Origin: Dehalococcoidia bacterium
Lineage (GTDB): Bacteria; Chloroflexota; Dehalococcoidia; Lucifugimonadales; UBA3495
DNA: 64,000 nt
Reading direction: 5' to 3'
Assembly (NCBI GenBank): GCA_963664375.1
Contig: OY761449.1
Coordinates: 2,315,087-2,379,086 of the forward strand
Each line of letters starts with the position of its first letter. Position 1 is the stretch's first letter. Below the pieces are notes generated by a model. It ran no database searches. It saw nothing but the letters and a program-made list of their open reading frames with translations, and was not told the DNA's origin. Position numbers and translations under genes: made by a program. Of this stretch, positions 21,291 to 27,354 are shown piece after piece.

Positions 21291-21444
21291 AATAAAAGGC
21301 CCCGCCGTAGTGACGCCCGCCCGTTGACACCCCAATAGGGCGGGCTTACGATTACCCCTGCCCGCCGTGCGCTCAATATTTCCTTTTCCGCCGGGAGAGG
21401 GTTATGTTGAGGGCGCGTACCGGCAAATCCGCTACGAAAAGGTG

Positions 21445-22395
21445 ATGAAGATGCCAGAAGTTTATGGCGTAGGTGACTTTCGGTACGAATTCGTCGAGGA
21501 TTGGGCCAAGCTCCCCGACGGAACCAACTTCCAGGAATGCCCCGGCGTTGCCTGCGACTCCAACGACAACGTGTTCGTGCTGACCCGCGGCAAGAACCCC
21601 ATCATGGTCTTCGACCGCGACGGCAACTACATGCGCTCCTTCGGCGAGGGCCTGTTCAGCGACAACCGCACCCACGGCCTCTACATCGGCCACGACGACT
21701 CGCTGCTGGCCGCCGACGACGGCATCCACACCATCCAGAAGTTCAGCGCCAACGGCGAGAAGGTCTGGGAGTTGGGCGAGCGCAACAACCCGGCCCCGCG
21801 CTGGAGCGGCGAGCCGTTCAACCGGCCCACCTCCGCCGCCACCAATCCCGCCAACGGCGACATCTACGTCTCCGACGGCTACGGCAACTCCCGCGTCCAC
21901 GTCTACACCAGCCAGCTTGAGTACAAGTTCTCCTGGGGCGAGCCGGGCATCGACGCCGGTCAGTTCATCCGCCCCCACAACATCGCCTTCGACAGCAACG
22001 AGCGCGTCTACGTGGTCGACCGCGAGTGCCACCGGATCCAGATTTTCGATCCCGAAGGCAACTTCATCACCATGTGGAGCAACATCCACCGCCCCGACTC
22101 CATGGTGCTGTGGGGCGAGCACATCTACGTCGGCGAGCTGAACGGCATGGGCGGCGTTGACGACGCTCCCGGCCTCGGCCACCGCGTCAGCATCTACGAC
22201 CTCGACGGCAACCGCGTCTGCATGTTCGGCGACAAGGCCGAGGGCGAGGGCGGCGGCCAGTTCATCGCCCCCCACGGCATCGCCGTCGACTCCCACGGCG
22301 ACATCTACGTGGCCGAGGTCTCATACACCATCCGCGGCCAGCACATGAACCCGCCCCGCGAACTCCGCTCCCTCTCCAAGTACCGCCGGGTGTAG
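21445..22395 (+). CDS. NHL-repeat beta-propeller protein (peptidyl-alpha-hydroxyglycine alpha-amidating lyase-like)
   Basis: Repeated NHL-type blades (GDIYVSDGYGNSRVHVY, ERVYVVDRECHRIQIFD, HGDIYVAEV). Start set after the REP-derived upstream sequence. Confidence 0.75.
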   Translation: MKMPEVYGVGDFRYEFVEDWAKLPDGTNFQECPGVACDSNDNVFVLTRGKNPIMVFDRDGNYMRSFGEGLFSDNRTHGLYIGHDDSLLAADDGIHTIQKFSANGEKVWELGERNNPAPRWSGEPFNRPTSAATNPANGDIYVSDGYGNSRVHVYTSQLEYKFSWGEPGIDAGQFIRPHNIAFDSNERVYVVDRECHRIQIFDPEGNFITMWSNIHRPDSMVLWGEHIYVGELNGMGGVDDAPGLGHRVSIYDLDGNRVCMFGDKAEGEGGGQFIAPHGIAVDSHGDIYVAEVSYTIRGQHMNPPRELRSLSKYRRV

Positions 22396-22465
22396 CCTAA
22401 AAGCGCGGCCACCGGCGGCGCTTTGGAGACAGGCGCCGCCGGTTCGAGAGTAACAGGAGTGAGCT

Positions 22466-22843
22466 ATGTTAACCATCGATGTTTTTCTGGCAACAATGTC
22501 TGCGCTAGTGGTAGCCGCCACTGCTGTACTCCTCTGGATTCTGACGGAGTTCCGGGCGATACGAAAGGAAGTTCGGGAAGGGTTCGAATCAGAAAGGCGG
22601 CAACAGCAAGCCGACAGGGATGCTGACCGAAGGGAACGGCAAGCGGAAAGAGAGGCGGACAGGCAGGAACGCCGTGAGGACAACCGGGCGTTGCGGGAGG
22701 ATTTGCTTGCGGCAATCCGGGTTGAATCCGAAGCGCGGCGCGCGGATACCCAGCGGATACTGGAGTCGATACACTTCCATAGCCACGACCCCGACGGCAC
22801 GGTAGCCCTCCGCCCACCCAGCAAGCCGCTGACTGAGAGTTGA
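22466..22843 (+). CDS. Membrane-anchored charged coiled-coil protein (125 aa), unknown function
   Basis: AGGAG RBS. N-terminal TM helix (VFLATMSALVVAATAVLLWIL) followed by an R/E/D/Q-rich helix (RRQQQADRDADRRERQAEREADRQERRED). Confidence 0.6.
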   Translation: MLTIDVFLATMSALVVAATAVLLWILTEFRAIRKEVREGFESERRQQQADRDADRRERQAEREADRQERREDNRALREDLLAAIRVESEARRADTQRILESIHFHSHDPDGTVALRPPSKPLTES

Positions 22844-22847
22844 AGCC

Positions 22848-23843
22848 ATGACCACGCCCAACCTTGCGAAAATCGAACGGGTAGACCTGCGCGAAGCGTG
22901 GGAACACGAGGCATATAATTTCACTCCTTGGCTCGCCAAACACATCGCCGAGCTAGGCGACGCGCTGAAGATGAACTTGCAGACCATCCAGCAGGAGGCT
23001 CCTGTGGGAAGCTTTTCGCTGGATATTCTAGCCATTGATTTTGACAGCAACCGCCGCGTGATAATTGAAAACCAATTGGAGGTTACCAACCACACACATT
23101 TGGGCCAACTGATAACCTACGCCGCAGGATATGATGCAAACGTTGTTGTATGGCTTACGCGGGAATTCCGAGACGAACACCGGCAAGCCCTGGACTGGCT
23201 CAATCAACGCACAGGCGAAGACACGCAATTTTTTGGAGTTGAAGTCGAGTTGTGGCGAATCGGAGAATCTTTACCGGCACCCCATTTCAAAGCAGTCGCC
23301 GCGCCGAATGATTGGATCAAACGGCAGAAGTCTGCCGTTCCGGTAACTGAAAAAGACAAACAAAACTTTGAATGGCGCGGTGTGCTAATAGAATCATTGC
23401 GTAATGATTCTGAAATCAAGTTCTCATCCAGGAGGAATGTCGAAGCAAAGGCCACGTGGCTACTGATCGAAAGACCTGTTACCGACGTCATATACGCGGC
23501 TACTTGGAGTCGGGGCAATCCCGGAATTGAGATTATTGCCCACAAGGGAGGGGCAGGCGGTAGGGAATGGAACCAACGCTTTCTTGATGCTCTGGAAGCT
23601 GAAAGTTCCTCAATTGAGGCTGGTCTTGTAGATCACGAAAAGGGAGAGTGGTGCCTTTGGGAGCGGGACCATAGGCAAGGTAGCTCAAGAGCAGTCATTT
23701 ATCGGAATGGCAACATTTTTGAAGAGCCGGAACTGCGGGCGGAATTCTGTGACTGGATGATCCAGAAGCTCCACAAATTCCGCCAAGTGATAACGCCACG
23801 CCTACAAGAATTTACCGAACAGGAGCAAGCAACCATTGAGTGA
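22848..23843 (+). CDS. PD-(D/E)xK (NucS-like) nuclease-fold protein, DUF4268-type
   Basis: The core FSLDILAID...RVIIENQLEVTNHTHLGQLITYAAG...VVWL..EFRDEHRQALDWLN is typical of DUF4268-associated nuclease domains. It starts 4 nt after the previous stop. GC is about 50%, below the flanks. Confidence 0.65.
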   Translation: MTTPNLAKIERVDLREAWEHEAYNFTPWLAKHIAELGDALKMNLQTIQQEAPVGSFSLDILAIDFDSNRRVIIENQLEVTNHTHLGQLITYAAGYDANVVVWLTREFRDEHRQALDWLNQRTGEDTQFFGVEVELWRIGESLPAPHFKAVAAPNDWIKRQKSAVPVTEKDKQNFEWRGVLIESLRNDSEIKFSSRRNVEAKATWLLIERPVTDVIYAATWSRGNPGIEIIAHKGGAGGREWNQRFLDALEAESSSIEAGLVDHEKGEWCLWERDHRQGSSRAVIYRNGNIFEEPELRAEFCDWMIQKLHKFRQVITPRLQEFTEQEQATIE

Positions 23844-24897
23844 AATTGGCGAAACTACAACCGTCCAGTGGGACAGCGCGCTGGAGGCCATCGAGCGGTG
23901 CTACGAGCTTGGCTGGACCGACGGGCTGCCCGTCGTGCCGCCCACGGAGGCCCGCGTCGCTGAGTTCATTGAGCGCACCGGGCGCCCCTCTGCCGAGGTC
24001 ATTGGCGAGCTGCCCGAGCGGCGCCGGGAGATCACTGTCGGCAAGATCGCGGCCAACGCCGTGATGGCTGGCTGCCTGCCGGAGTACATGCCCGTGGTGC
24101 TTACCGCCACCGAGGCCATGCTCGACCCGGTGTTCAACCTCGTCGGCCCGTCCTCCAGCATGGGCGGCTCGGGCATCCTGACCATCATCAACGGGCCGGT
24201 GACGCGGGAGCTGAACATCAACGCCCGCAACAACCTGTTCGGGCCGGGCAATCGCGCCAACGCCACCATCGGGCGGGCCGTGCGCCTCATCCTGATGAAT
24301 GCCTGCGCCGCCATCCCCGGCGTGTTCGACCGCAGCGTCATCGGCCACCCCGGAAAGTACACCTACTGCATCGCCGAGGCCGAAACCGAAACGCACTGGA
24401 CGCCCCTGCACGTCGAGCGCGGCTTCCAAGCCAGCCAGAGTACGGTGACGGTGTTCGCTGGCGAGTCGCCCCGCCAGGTGCGTTCCGTGGGACGCCCCGA
24501 GCCGATCCTGCTGGCCATCGCCGATACCGCGTCCAGCCTCGGCACCAACATGTCCACCTCCGGCTCCGTCGGCGAGACCGGCACCGGCGTGCGGCAGGGC
24601 GAGATCGTGGTCACCATCGCGGGCAACTCCGGCCTGTGGTCGGACTGGACCAAAGAGCAGGTGCGAGATTTCATTTACCAACGGGCGCAACGCAGCATCG
24701 CCGAATTGAAGCAGGCCCAGGTACTTGCCGGAGACGTTGAGCCGGGCGATGAGTCAACGCCGGTCTCGCTCATCCCCGACCCGTCCGACATCCTGCTGCT
24801 CTTCGCGGGCGGCGAAGAGTCCAACATGTCCTCGGTAATCCCCAGTTGGGGCCCCAAGGTGGGCAGCACCGCAGTTACGAAAGTGATTCCGGCATAA
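23836..24897 (+). CDS. Conserved-looking hypothetical protein (353 aa), first gene of the selenoprotein operon
   Basis: TTG start 10 nt after AGGAG, overlapping the previous gene by 8 nt. Strong GC3 coding signal. Contains GWTDGLPVVPPTE and AANAVMAGC segments, but I cannot assign a family. Confidence 0.6.
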   Translation: MSEIGETTTVQWDSALEAIERCYELGWTDGLPVVPPTEARVAEFIERTGRPSAEVIGELPERRREITVGKIAANAVMAGCLPEYMPVVLTATEAMLDPVFNLVGPSSSMGGSGILTIINGPVTRELNINARNNLFGPGNRANATIGRAVRLILMNACAAIPGVFDRSVIGHPGKYTYCIAEAETETHWTPLHVERGFQASQSTVTVFAGESPRQVRSVGRPEPILLAIADTASSLGTNMSTSGSVGETGTGVRQGEIVVTIAGNSGLWSDWTKEQVRDFIYQRAQRSIAELKQAQVLAGDVEPGDESTPVSLIPDPSDILLLFAGGEESNMSSVIPSWGPKVGSTAVTKVIPA

Positions 24898-24915
24898 GGG
24901 GTTCAACGGAGGGGC

Positions 24916-25269
24916 ATGACGGATCGCGAGGCCCGTTGGCGGCGTAGTATTGAGGAGATCAAGGAGCTAGATGAGCGCCTTGACCAGCTATTTGTGGACA
25001 TTCGCGCCAGTGAAGAGTCCGAGCTTCCCGGGATTCTCCAGGCCTTTCAGGAATCGCCTCTTGGTAGCCGCTTTCGAGGACTGGAAGACGTGGCGGAGGA
25101 TATCCGGGAATGCTACTGCGCCGACAAGACCTGCGGGCATACCTGCACATATTGGGATTGCAGGGAACCGTGCGACGGTAAGTCCCGGGGACATTGCGAG
25201 GACTGTTTCGCATTCGTCCCGAATCTGCTAACCTTCTGCCACTGCGGCCAGACCATCATGGCATCCTGA
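24916..25269 (+). CDS. Cys/His-rich small protein (117 aa), unknown function
   Basis: GGAGGGG RBS. The C-terminal half has 11 Cys and several His (CYCADKTCGHTCTYWDCREPCDGKSRGHCEDC...CHCG). Confidence 0.6.
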   Translation: MTDREARWRRSIEEIKELDERLDQLFVDIRASEESELPGILQAFQESPLGSRFRGLEDVAEDIRECYCADKTCGHTCTYWDCREPCDGKSRGHCEDCFAFVPNLLTFCHCGQTIMAS

Positions 25270-25321
25270 CCATCGCTTTCGGAAGGAGATGGTCTCAAAA
25301 TCAAATTCGGGAGGGGAATGG

Positions 25322-25864
25322 ATGACTACCACCAACGACCATGTCCTGGTCAACCCGGTGACGCAGCCGGTGATCGCCCCGTTCAACGGCGCGCCGCGCT
25401 TGGCCAGCCTGGCCGGCACCCGCCTCGGGCTGATCGACGACAGCAAGCGCAACGCCGATGTCCTGCTGGAAGAGCTGGTGGAGATTTTGCGAACCCGCTA
25501 CGAGATTGCCAGCGTCAAGTGGCACCGCAAGCCCAGCGCCTCGCGCCCCGCCGACCCGGAGGCCCTCAAGGAGCTGGTGGAGGAGTGCGATTCCGTGGTC
25601 GTTGCGATAGGTGATTGAGGGTCTTGCAGCGCGTGCAGTGTGCACGACGGAATTCACGTTGAGAACGCTGGCATCCCCTCGGCCACCATTTGCACCGACC
25701 GGTTCATCCCGACGGCCACTGGCATGGCCCGCATGTGGGGCGCGCCCGACTACCCTACCATCTACACCGAGCACCCCATCGAGAACCTCACCCGCGAGGC
25801 CCTGCGCGCCCGCGCCGAAGGCTTGGCGCCGCTCGTTGTGCAGGTGCTGACCGGCGAGGGCTAG
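25322..25864 (+). CDS. Selenoprotein with a U-G-S-C motif (in-frame UGA at 25616-25618 read as Sec); 'UGSC family (seleno)protein'-like
   Basis: ORFs 25289-25618 and 25640-25864 share one frame and are separated only by TGA. Read-through gives VVAIGD-U-GSCSACSVHDGIHVENAG. A hairpin lies 13 nt downstream. Start ATG 25322 is preferred (GGGAGGGG 5 nt upstream), with ATG 25289 as an alternative. Confidence 0.75.
25632..25646 (+). promoter_or_regulatory. Candidate bacterial SECIS hairpin
   Basis: CGTGCA-GTG-TGCACG, a 6-bp stem and 3-nt loop, begins 13 nt after the UGA. Possible outer pairing of CAGCG (25627-25631) with CGCTG (25666-25670). Confidence 0.4.
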
Positions 25865-25897
25865 CCACGATTCATTTCTCCAAGCGCTACCTGTATC

Positions 25898-25925
25898 GTA
25901 GGGGCGCACGGCTGTGCGCCCCTAC
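25898..25925. repeat. Family-C hairpin repeat (GTAGGGGCGCAC-N4-GTGCGCCCCTAC)
   Basis: 12-bp perfect stem between convergent genes. Related copies lie at 28296-28323 and 62142-62169. Confidence 0.85.
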
Positions 25926-25935
25926 TTGAGAATCC

Positions 25936-26166
25936 CTACGCCAGCTCGCGCCGTAGTGTCGGCGGCAGCAGGTTCGGGATAGTGTCCTCAATCGGGTAGG
26001 TCTCGTCGCAAGCGGCGCAGTAGAGCGAGCCCGTCACGATCTCATCGCCCTCTTCCACGTCGGCCTTCAGTTGCAATTCGCCCTTGCACACCGGGCAAGC
26101 CAGGATTTCCATCAGGTCTCGTTTCAAGTTCTCCCCCTCGTTTCGCAGGGCCTTTTCAAAGTCCAT
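25936..26166 (-). CDS. Trm112-family zinc-ribbon protein
   Basis: ILACPVCKGELQL...LYCAACDETYPIEDTIPNLL is the Trm112 signature. The start is ambiguous (ATG 26166 or ATG 26112). The longer ORF to 26292 is encoded by a family-D repeat. Confidence 0.75.
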   Translation of the reverse strand: MDFEKALRNEGENLKRDLMEILACPVCKGELQLKADVEEGDEIVTGSLYCAACDETYPIEDTIPNLLPPTLRRELA

Positions 26167-26175
26167 TCCAAGCCG

Positions 26176-26243
26176 CTCATGGTGAGCTTGTCGAACCACC
26201 AGCGGCTTGAACCGGCATCCTTCGACAAGCTCAGAATGAGTGG
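26176..26243. repeat. Family-D repeat (ATGGTGAGCTTGTCGAACCAC... with a 12-bp inverted repeat GAGCTTGTCGAA/TTCGACAAGCTC)
   Basis: The inverted repeat lies at 26183-26194 and 26221-26232. A partial copy (atggtgagcctgtcgaaccac) is at 55061-55081. Confidence 0.7.
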
Positions 26244-26323
26244 ACGACAGGTTCGCCACGAGTGGGCGCCAGTGGATAACGTTACTTCGCAAAGGCCCTG
26301 CTCATTTCCTTCCTGCTGTTGAT

Positions 26324-26809
26324 TCAGGACACCAGCGCGTTTTCGAACAACGCATCCAGCACGTCGGACAGGCCGATGACCACGACGCCGATTACCAGCA
26401 GCGCCATCGGGCTGGTGGCCCGGCGGACGGCCCGGCGCAGTGTCCCCGTCCCCTCATCTTCCGATGGCCCGTAATCTCCTCGCCGCACGATGCGTACCAC
26501 GTAGAACATGAACAGCGCCAGCGCAATCTTGACGCCGAGGACAATTGCGTAGGGAACCGTGGCCCCCTCGCCGGTCAACCGGGCCACTGACAGGATCACG
26601 CCCGTCAGCAGCAGAACCGCGATGGCCGTGGCGACGAGGCCGCGAAATTCGTCCCTGATCGCCGTTCCGGTCTCCGGGGGCATTCCCTGTGACCGCCGGA
26701 TGGCAGGACGCAGCACCATCAGGTAAAAGATGCCGCCGCCCACCCAGGCCACGGCGGACACGGCATGCCCCCACCGGATGATGACCAGTATCCAGTCTAA
26801 AACGCCCAT
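26324..26809 (-). CDS. Integral membrane protein (about 4 TM helices), CopD-like
   Basis: Hydrophobic helices throughout, with an N-terminal WGHAVSAVAWVGG motif reminiscent of the CopD/DUF-type membrane families. The assignment is tentative. Confidence 0.5.
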   Translation of the reverse strand: MGVLDWILVIIRWGHAVSAVAWVGGGIFYLMVLRPAIRRSQGMPPETGTAIRDEFRGLVATAIAVLLLTGVILSVARLTGEGATVPYAIVLGVKIALALFMFYVVRIVRRGDYGPSEDEGTGTLRRAVRRATSPMALLVIGVVVIGLSDVLDALFENALVS

Positions 26810-26859
26810 TCACATCCGCACACTGATGGTCTTGGCTGAGGCGGCACTAACAGCCGGAG

Positions 26860-27354
26860 CTACCCATCAATCAACTCTCGCACAATACCGGTTAACTGTC
26901 CCGCGTCCATGGTGCTCACGAATGTCTCCGCGACCCTGCCCTTCCGGTCAATGAACCATGTGGTAGGGTAGAACTCGATCCCGTAGGTCGATGCTATGGT
27001 CTTCCGGTGGTCCGTTGCGAAGTCGAAGGTTAATCCAAACTCGCTCACGAACTCGCGGGCCATTGCCTCGTTGTCGAACCCGCTTGGCACGAACAGCCCC
27101 AGAAACCGCACCGGCTCGCCCTCCAACCCCTCCCATGCCTTCTGGAATTCGGGCATTTCCTCCCGGCATGGCGCACAACTGGGATACCAGAAATTGATCA
27201 CCACTACGTTGTCGGCATACTCCTCGGACAGACGGAACTCCCCGCCATCGAACAGTTGCACCTCGAAATCCTGAGCTGTCTCCCCGCCACACGCCGTCGC
27301 TAGCAGCAGAAGCAGCAGCAATGCCAGTGGCAAGGATTTCAATTGACGGAACAT
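26860..27354 (-). CDS. TlpA-family thiol:disulfide oxidoreductase lipoprotein (thioredoxin fold)
   Basis: Lipobox LLLATAC after a signal peptide. WYPSCAPC CxxC active site. Start set to ATG 27354 (MFRQLKSLPL). Confidence 0.85.
   Translation of the reverse strand: MFRQLKSLPLALLLLLLLATACGGETAQDFEVQLFDGGEFRLSEEYADNVVVINFWYPSCAPCREEMPEFQKAWEGLEGEPVRFLGLFVPSGFDNEAMAREFVSEFGLTFDFATDHRKTIASTYGIEFYPTTWFIDRKGRVAETFVSTMDAGQLTGIVRELIDG

Follow-up and report, generated by a model that had tools for sequence, protein, structure and literature searches.

The window analysed here, a 64,000-nt stretch of a Dehalococcoidia bacterium genome (contig OY761449.1, positions 2,315,087 to 2,379,086), encodes a selenoprotein of the UGSC family (25322..25864, + strand) and, upstream of it, a 353-aa protein from an unnamed family, here called A353 (23836..24897, + strand). 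The two genes form a deeply conserved functional unit, as they are adjacent, co-oriented, co-inherited and repeatedly fused in other genomes. At this locus we consider it reasonably likely that they constitute a conserved two-gene selenoenzyme unit, carried in an operon in which an NHL-repeat gene precedes A353 and UGSC and in which two intergenic slots have been invaded. The UGSC family is already known, being the 'UGSC-containing protein' of Zhang & Gladyshev (PMC1976440, PMC2398784). It is among the five most abundant selenoprotein families of ocean metagenomes (PMC2398784) but has had no assigned function since about 2007 (PMC1976440, PMC13188914), and the last of these papers still lists it as uncharacterised. 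Among its carriers is the cultured Hyphomonas neptunium, as cited in PMC1976440. It has been treated as a stand-alone protein of unknown function with a 'likely Trx-like fold' (PMC2398784, PMC13188914). In contrast, the UGSC domain modelled here is predicted to be flavodoxin-like, and the protein has a near-obligate partner that is named in no database: A353 has no name in Pfam or NCBIfam and no function in the literature, and a literature search on SAR202 and selenoproteins found no papers. The presence of an enzyme-sized and near-obligate partner makes the question of UGSC function approachable. New for the locus are the pairing of all six gene sets in its own genome, a class-wide phylogenetic profile, the link to an NHL gene, and the assignment of a Cys-rich gene and a nuclease gene as passengers.

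Based on its profile scores, the downstream gene is a bona fide member of the UGSC family, above both curated cut-offs: it matches PF24696 with an E value of 1.4e-57 and 195 bits (cut-off 25) and NF041046 with 155.6 bits (cut-off 125). It has the D-U-G-S-C motif of the family. The in-frame TGA at 25616-25618 is the selenocysteine (Sec) codon, for residue 99 of UGSC, set in the motif GD-U-GSC, and the reading frame is kept across it; the genome also encodes SelB (322.8 bits, cut-off 242). The hairpin following the UGA, a candidate SECIS element, has a folding energy of -15.9 kcal/mol and is no different from shuffled sequences (z = -0.36), and an Rfam search of 22000-27000 gave no relevant match. 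In public gene calls the UGA divides UGSC into two separate products, of ~98 and ~74 aa (L007-L010, L108-L112).

In its own genome, a 3.9-Mb assembly, there are six A353 paralogues and six UGSC genes, each UGSC gene with one in-frame TGA, and the two families pair in 6/6 cases within 2 kb on the same strand. Three of these pairs are directly adjacent, with A353 followed by UGSC. The window pair is split by the insertion of the Cys-rich gene, and in another pair (L025) the ~920 nt between the genes hold two small family-less open reading frames (ORFs) of 152 and 99 aa. Beyond this species, 80 A353 loci were fetched from species-representative genomes of several phyla, covering Chloroflexota, Methylomirabilota, Binatia, Acidobacteriota, Burkholderiales, Rhodospirillaceae, Pseudomonadales, Candidatus Poriferisodalis (by its label) and others. 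When scored with a purpose-built hidden Markov model, 67 of the 80 have a UGSC gene within 6 kb; in almost all cases it follows A353 directly on the same strand, and it has one TGA. Among Dehalococcoidia genomes with complete hit lists, 54 of 61 UGSC genes have an A353 gene within 3 kb. Among the 150 UGSC genes listed, the adjacent A353 pairs all share a strand (107/107) with a median gap of 122 nt, and in the Dehalococcoidia the two gene orders are about equally frequent in adjacent pairs.

The two families are also inherited together. Of 81 Dehalococcoidia genomes, 32 encode UGSC and 31 encode A353, and all 31 of the latter have both (Fisher p = 1.4e-21); the copy numbers of the two families correlate with a Spearman rho of 0.94. 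A sequence-only reading of this DNA had proposed a candidate selenium-dependent module of three genes, A353, the Cys-rich gene and UGSC, to be checked by co-occurrence across genomes; the co-occurrence holds for A353 with UGSC (67/80 loci, 31/32 genomes), while the Cys-rich gene accompanies them in syntenic loci of close relatives only. In two Dehalococcoidia genomes (G033 and G035) the UGSC genes number at least 37 apiece and every one of them has a single in-frame TGA, an expansion that is unusually large for one selenoprotein family. The many paralogous pairs per genome, six here and 37 or more elsewhere, suggest a catabolic enzyme family that has diversified by substrate, and copy numbers of this size point to a major and diversified use of selenium in uncultured Chloroflexota.

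A353 is itself a large family, with more than 8000 homologues in 90% clusters and 4957 clusters at 50% identity, and the source names of the homologues point to SAR202, Dehalococcoidia and Chloroflexota. Neither the window protein nor the 63 aligned members match a family in Pfam or NCBIfam, apart from scattered chance matches of single members, and a search of the window protein against PDB sequences also found no match. The core motifs GWTDGLPVVPPT, NAVMAGC and RANATIGRA are all found in the window A353. Invariant positions are G26, D29, G30, P35, A72, A75-C80 (the stretch AVMAGC), G120, P121, R140, N142, G146, R147, L151, N155, G170, E181, W188 and G325; C178 is kept in most members and is Val in some clades. 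Cys80 is invariant in 63/63 stand-alone and 45/45 fused A353 sequences. An AlphaFold2 (AF2) model of A353, built with 63 sequences translated from the fetched loci, is confident, with a predicted local distance difference test (pLDDT) score of 90.4 and a predicted template modelling score (pTM) of 0.90, and places Cys80 in a short loop between two helices. A Foldseek search of the model against the PDB returned nothing with E <= 1e-3, the best template modelling (TM) score being 0.29. As modelled, the A353 fold has no convincing solved relative. Class I fumarate hydratase (E 1.6e-3, TM 0.26) and the cyanuric acid hydrolase/barbiturase or 'Toblerone' fold (E ~0.03, TM ~0.2) were considered as relatives and rejected as too weak. 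The absence of a recognised family for the 353-aa protein, noted from the letters alone, was borne out in Pfam, NCBIfam, PDB and Foldseek searches, none of which found homology to a well-known enzyme family.

The two proteins also occur as single polypeptides. Many proteins of 524-581 aa are fusions with UGSC at the N-terminus and A353 at the C-terminus, one of which is named 'UGSC family (seleno)protein' by NCBI. Seven of ten sampled relatives of 414-453 aa start with the post-UGA tail of UGSC and are therefore truncated gene calls of Sec-containing fusions; such calls starting after the UGA include P0160, P0172, P0191 and others. The 2008 Global Ocean Sampling paper (PMC2398784) mentioned a 'UGSC/Unknown_1' fusion, whose Unknown_1 part is a conserved domain with no assigned function and is probably A353. 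The AF2 model of one natural fusion, P0221, built with 45 fusion sequences, has a pLDDT of 88.3 and a pTM of 0.91, and the latter value implies that the two domains would pack against each other in a fixed and defined way. The motif in separate-gene pairs is always D-U-G-[S/A/G]-C. Within 45 Cys-type fusions the first Cys of the motif is invariant and the fourth position is Ser in 33, changing CxxC to CxxS. Nearly all of these CxxS fusions (32/33) gain a Cys at an A353 site that is otherwise F, Y or W (F100 in the window protein), while all 12 CxxC-type fusions retain F or L there; the two covarying sites are P0221 positions 101 and 311 in alignment A3. The resolving cysteine may have moved between domains in the Cys-type fusions. 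This covariation hints at an inter-domain thiol site, although it may reflect one or two clades only.

UGSC found no match among PDB sequences, and clues to its fold come from the fusion model. All PDB matches of the P0221 model lie on its UGSC domain, and they are flavodoxin-like (azoreductase, lumazine synthase and flavodoxin domains) with target TM scores of 0.4-0.56. The model accordingly assigns UGSC a predicted flavodoxin-like fold and not the thioredoxin fold guessed in 2008. The only secondary NCBIfam matches of UGSC proteins are to selenoprotein B models, namely GrdB, GrdF, GrdH, PrdB and TIGR01918, of which the GrdB model TIGR01917 is matched by 9/26 UGSC proteins; the selenoprotein B models considered were TIGR01917, TIGR01918 and TIGR04483. 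The alignments fall on the Sec region, at positions 326-399 of 431 in the GrdB model and 127-187 of 238 in that of PrdB. The scores are far below the selenoprotein B cut-offs (24.1 bits against 602 for TIGR01917 and 16.4 against 300 for PrdB). The alignments thus weakly indicate a remote similarity of UGSC to GrdB and PrdB, local to the surroundings of the Sec and faint but specific.

In Stickland reductases the Sec of GrdB or PrdB attacks the substrate, and PrdB and GrdB pair with proproteins that self-cleave at a Cys. The A353-UGSC unit would resemble protein B of these systems (GrdB/F/H with GrdE, PrdB with PrdA) in combining a Sec-bearing UxxC subunit that aligns weakly but specifically to their Sec region with a larger, substrate-specific subunit. 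It differs in that UGSC scores far below their cut-offs and is only ~180 aa long, in that A353 has no similarity to GrdE or PrdA and no PF09338 or NCBIfam match, and in that the organisms that encode the unit, judged by their taxon labels, are not Stickland fermenters. The comparison with glycine and proline reductases that had been drawn as an analogy therefore gains a weak homology basis for UGSC and none for A353. The unit likewise recalls cysteine enzymes recycled by thioredoxin, such as methionine sulfoxide reductases (Msr), ArsC and peroxiredoxins, in that its large subunit has an invariant Cys, its other partner is of the U/CxxC type and one A353 is fused to a CxxC domain of the thioredoxin fold. 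These enzymes have no homology to A353 or UGSC, however, and the UGSC partner domain does not appear to be of the thioredoxin fold.

Given the above, A353 could be the substrate-binding catalytic subunit, with the invariant Cys80, Asp29, Arg140, Asn142, Arg147, Glu181 and Trp188, plus C178, as active-site candidates. UGSC, as a putative flavodoxin-like domain and a distant relative of the part of GrdB and PrdB that carries the Sec, would bring the selenolate of its D-U-G-S-C motif into that active site. There the Sec might attack the bound substrate, in a reductive cleavage of the Grd/Prd type, or might resolve Cys80 after oxidation or adduct formation, and a thioredoxin-type system would then reduce the Se-S bond that results. 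More tentatively, and with the balance of probability on the other side, the unit may represent a new class of Sec-dependent enzyme, two-subunit or fused and with a catalytic subunit whose fold has no solved relative, that carries out GrdB/PrdB-like reductive cleavage of diverse small carboxylated organics. The same tentative proposal would have dozens of substrate-specialised paralogues in SAR202-type Dehalococcoidia and further members in many aerobic soil, freshwater and marine phyla. If true, it would give an abundant ocean selenoprotein family its first function.

Other explanations of the unit differ in what the Sec does and in which proteins take part. UGSC might be a dedicated selenium 'redoxin' that recycles the catalytic Cys80 of A353, so that the Sec never touches the substrate. 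This is unlikely but has to be taken seriously given the complete invariance of Cys80 in stand-alone and fused sequences, the single fusion protein (P0204) that joins A353 to an AhpC/TSA-fold domain whose motif is C-A-T-C, and the exchange of CxxC for CxxS together with a new A353 Cys, which hints at inter-domain thiol chemistry. Other points speak against it: UGSC is predicted to be flavodoxin-like and not thioredoxin-fold, its only remote relatives are GrdB and PrdB, whose Sec attacks the substrate, the covariation probably comes from one or two clades only, and the context of P0204 is cut by the end of its contig 92 nt past the gene. A mechanism closer to the Stickland enzymes, in which A353 is a pyruvoyl proenzyme like GrdE or PrdA that cleaves itself at Gly79-Cys80 and binds an amine through the new carbonyl for attack by the UGSC Sec, appears very unlikely. 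The A-G-C motif is invariant, and the proteins that UGSC resembles, PrdB and GrdB, do partner with self-cleaving proproteins. A search of the genome with PF09338 (GrdE/PrdA) also found no match, a weak point in its favour as control genomes were silent too. Yet A353 has no sequence or fold similarity to GrdE or PrdA, the short loop between two helices in which the model places Cys80 is atypical for a self-processing turn, and the natural fusions put A353 C-terminal to UGSC, with no obvious need of cleavage.

Very unlikely as well is a three-subunit selenium-dependent reductase in which the Cys-rich protein would serve as a subunit or as an electron carrier based on metal or thiols, in the manner of GrdA or a ferredoxin. 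It finds support in the position of the Cys-rich gene between both partners, on the same strand and with its own Shine-Dalgarno (SD) sequence, in the invariance of 9 Cys and 2 His among its homologues, and in the occurrence of another Cys-motif protein, DUF1326, in the same slot of a sister lineage. The family numbers only 15 homologues, however, and is found in 0/80 of the species-representative A353 loci and beside none of the other five A353-UGSC pairs of its own genome. Homologues with at least 63% identity are confined to close relatives in which the whole locus is syntenic (NHL, small ORF, DUF4268, A353, Cys-rich, UGSC, Trm112, CopD, AhpC), while those at 42-57% identity lie in unrelated contexts, beside an aminotransferase or a molybdenum (Mo) oxidoreductase, with no A353 or UGSC nearby. 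Orthologous loci also run A353 directly into UGSC: the slot is empty at 86-87% A353 identity in L108 (40-nt gap) and L109 and at 77% in L031, L032 and L034 (44 nt). At ~84% identity it holds DUF1326, whole in L028:2818-3429 and split into two ORFs in L110:4588-5180 and L111, and in other lineages a PaREP1-like gene of 127 aa (L029:6464-6847, L030:7061-7444). In relatives whose A353 is 91-92% identical, the NHL protein is 93-97% and the Cys-rich protein only 63-77% identical, so that the latter diverges three to four times faster than A353. The missing co-occurrence largely refutes the three-subunit model. Given its absence from the 80 loci, its unrelated contexts elsewhere, the variable slot, its codon usage and its rate of divergence, the Cys-rich gene is a recent lineage-specific insertion outside the A353-UGSC module. 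Of the proposed three-gene module, the A353-UGSC unit accordingly stands by adjacency, strand, profile and fusions, and its Cys-rich member does not. The product of the Cys-rich gene is most likely a small zinc-binding accessory protein, independent of the pair, that merely uses the transcription of the operon, and it does not belong in models or constructs of the A353-UGSC enzyme.

Several observations weigh against the A353-UGSC unit as the general rule, or against its reading as a selenoenzyme with an incidental insert. At about 13 of the 80 loci no UGSC gene lies within 6 kb of A353, and these include a whole A353 clade (L038-L043, L045) at 59-64% identity to the window protein. Conversely, several of the best-scoring UGSC genes have no listed A353 neighbour within 3 kb (G048:C32:41814-42320, G004:C315:9865-10374, G074:C87:11980-12489 and G034:C36:24446-24955), and may form a stand-alone UGSC subfamily. 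In view of both sets of genes, the partnership, though near-obligate, is not absolute. In addition, the analogy of A353 to the large subunits of Grd and Prd would rest on position only, since A353 has no detectable similarity to GrdE or PrdA. Finally, two different Cys-motif proteins, the 117-aa protein and DUF1326, share the slot in sister lineages, and with a small probability it is selection, and not accident, that has put metal- or redox-related accessory factors there. With the PaREP1-like occupant and the many empty slots, an insertion hotspot is the more economical reading, and the slot looks like one.

Other arrangements of A353 were also seen. At L041:5626-7053 it stands alone between proBA-like and rplI/dnaB-like genes. 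At G020:C1:2873348-2882180 five A353 genes form a tandem array that has just two UGSC genes, and in P0137, P0143 and other proteins of ~710 aa the A353 domain occurs twice; A353 might work as a dimer or without a UGSC of its own.

The layout of the window locus is largely as described from the letters alone. The three ORFs lie on the same strand, each with its own SD. That of A353 has a TTG start preceded by AGGAG at ~10 nt, and this start overlaps the stop of the upstream 331-aa nuclease gene by 8 nt. The Cys-rich ORF of 117 aa (24916..25269, + strand) begins 18 nt past the A353 stop and has GGAGG upstream. For UGSC the start is most likely the ATG at 25322, preceded by GGAGG at 7 nt, while the alternative ATG at 25289 directly abuts its own SD. 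The distance to the Cys-rich gene, put earlier at about 20-50 nt, is 52 nt from the likeliest start. Both the A353 and the Cys-rich genes are real, given their homologues (more than 8000 and 15) and conserved residues. The G+C content at third codon positions (GC3) is 0.87 for A353, 0.87 for UGSC and 0.93 for the NHL gene, and is 0.66 for the Cys-rich gene, 0.63 for a 125-aa charged protein gene and 0.53 for the nuclease gene. The contrast between a native high-GC A353 gene and a lower-GC nuclease gene was therefore correctly read (0.87 vs 0.53). With a GC3 of 0.87 against 0.66, the composition of A353 is native and that of the Cys-rich gene is not, the latter being like that of the other inserted genes.

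The Cys-rich protein itself has 10 Cys (66, 68, 73, 77, 82, 86, 94, 97, 108 and 110) and 3 His (75, 93 and 109) between residues 66 and 110, and not the 11 Cys counted before. Invariant in its homologues are C66, C68, C73, H75, C77, C86, C94, C97, C108, H109 and C110, in the pattern C-x-C-x4-C-x-H-x-C ... C ... C-E-D-C-F-A-F ... F-C-H-C, and C82 is kept in at least 90% of them. From this pattern the protein is probably zinc-binding, with more than one zinc predicted. Searches against PADLOC and PHROGs gave no matches. Of its distant homologues, one follows an aminotransferase gene downstream of another NHL-repeat gene (L001:2532-5336) and others come after a 71-aa ORF next to a Mo-oxidoreductase gene (L004:4767-5390; L004-L006).

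Upstream, the NHL-repeat beta-propeller gene (21445..22395, + strand; Pfam NHL E 1.6e-20), for which a longer ORF from 21367 is also possible, has PDB sequence matches that include the peptidyl-alpha-hydroxyglycine lyase domain 3fvz (E 2.7e-14). An NHL gene accompanies the A353-UGSC pair in two separate clades. In the ortholog group of the window it lies upstream of A353, directly adjacent in L032, and in the paralogue clade L068-L088 it comes immediately after UGSC and ahead of a luciferase-like monooxygenase (LLM) gene. The all-vs-all clustering of ORFs from the 80 loci was noisy due to shadow ORFs in high-GC DNA, and only the NHL, LLM and short-chain dehydrogenase/reductase (SDR) clusters were used after inspection. 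NHL was probably the first gene of an ancestral NHL-A353-UGSC unit in this clade.

Two genes now separate NHL from A353. The 125-aa charged small protein (22466..22843, + strand, lower GC) has no match in Pfam, NCBIfam or PADLOC searches and is 46-48% identical in relatives whose A353 is 91-92% identical. The DUF4268-like nuclease of 331 aa (22848..23843, + strand) matches the PADLOC defence candidate PDC-S11 with an E value of 1.3e-91 over its full length (residues 1-321 on profile positions 1-314 of 318). This likeness concerns the nuclease only, which is an inserted neighbour and not part of the selenoprotein unit. The nuclease diverges fast, being 46-72% identical in the same relatives, and it is missing from orthologs L032 and L108 while found in L033 and L109. 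Both are inserted passengers outside the module, so that the NHL-A353 slot as well as the A353-UGSC slot has been invaded by accessory genes. Accessory and defence-type genes insert into the intergenic slots of this operon. The own-genome pair L027 (G000:C1:444984-448271) has likewise been entered by a nuclease or restriction-type insert: UGSC is followed there by a 171-aa ORF, a PLD-like nuclease gene (PF13091) and then A353, and the pair adjoins Dcm-like and Vsr-like genes.

As for transcription, a promoter scan placed a promoter-like site at 21324-21352, upstream of NHL, and no promoter-like or terminator-like site was called in the + strand gaps between NHL and UGSC. The sole + strand terminator-like match in that span, at 23018-23032, falls inside the nuclease gene. 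A perfect hairpin, read from the sequence and assigned to neither strand, lies 34 nt past the UGSC stop at 25898..25925, with a 12-bp stem and a 4-nt loop (GTAGGGGCGCAC GGCT GTGCGCCCCTAC). The terminator scan did not call it because it lacks a T tract, and it is probably a repetitive extragenic palindromic (REP)-type element or the end of the operon.

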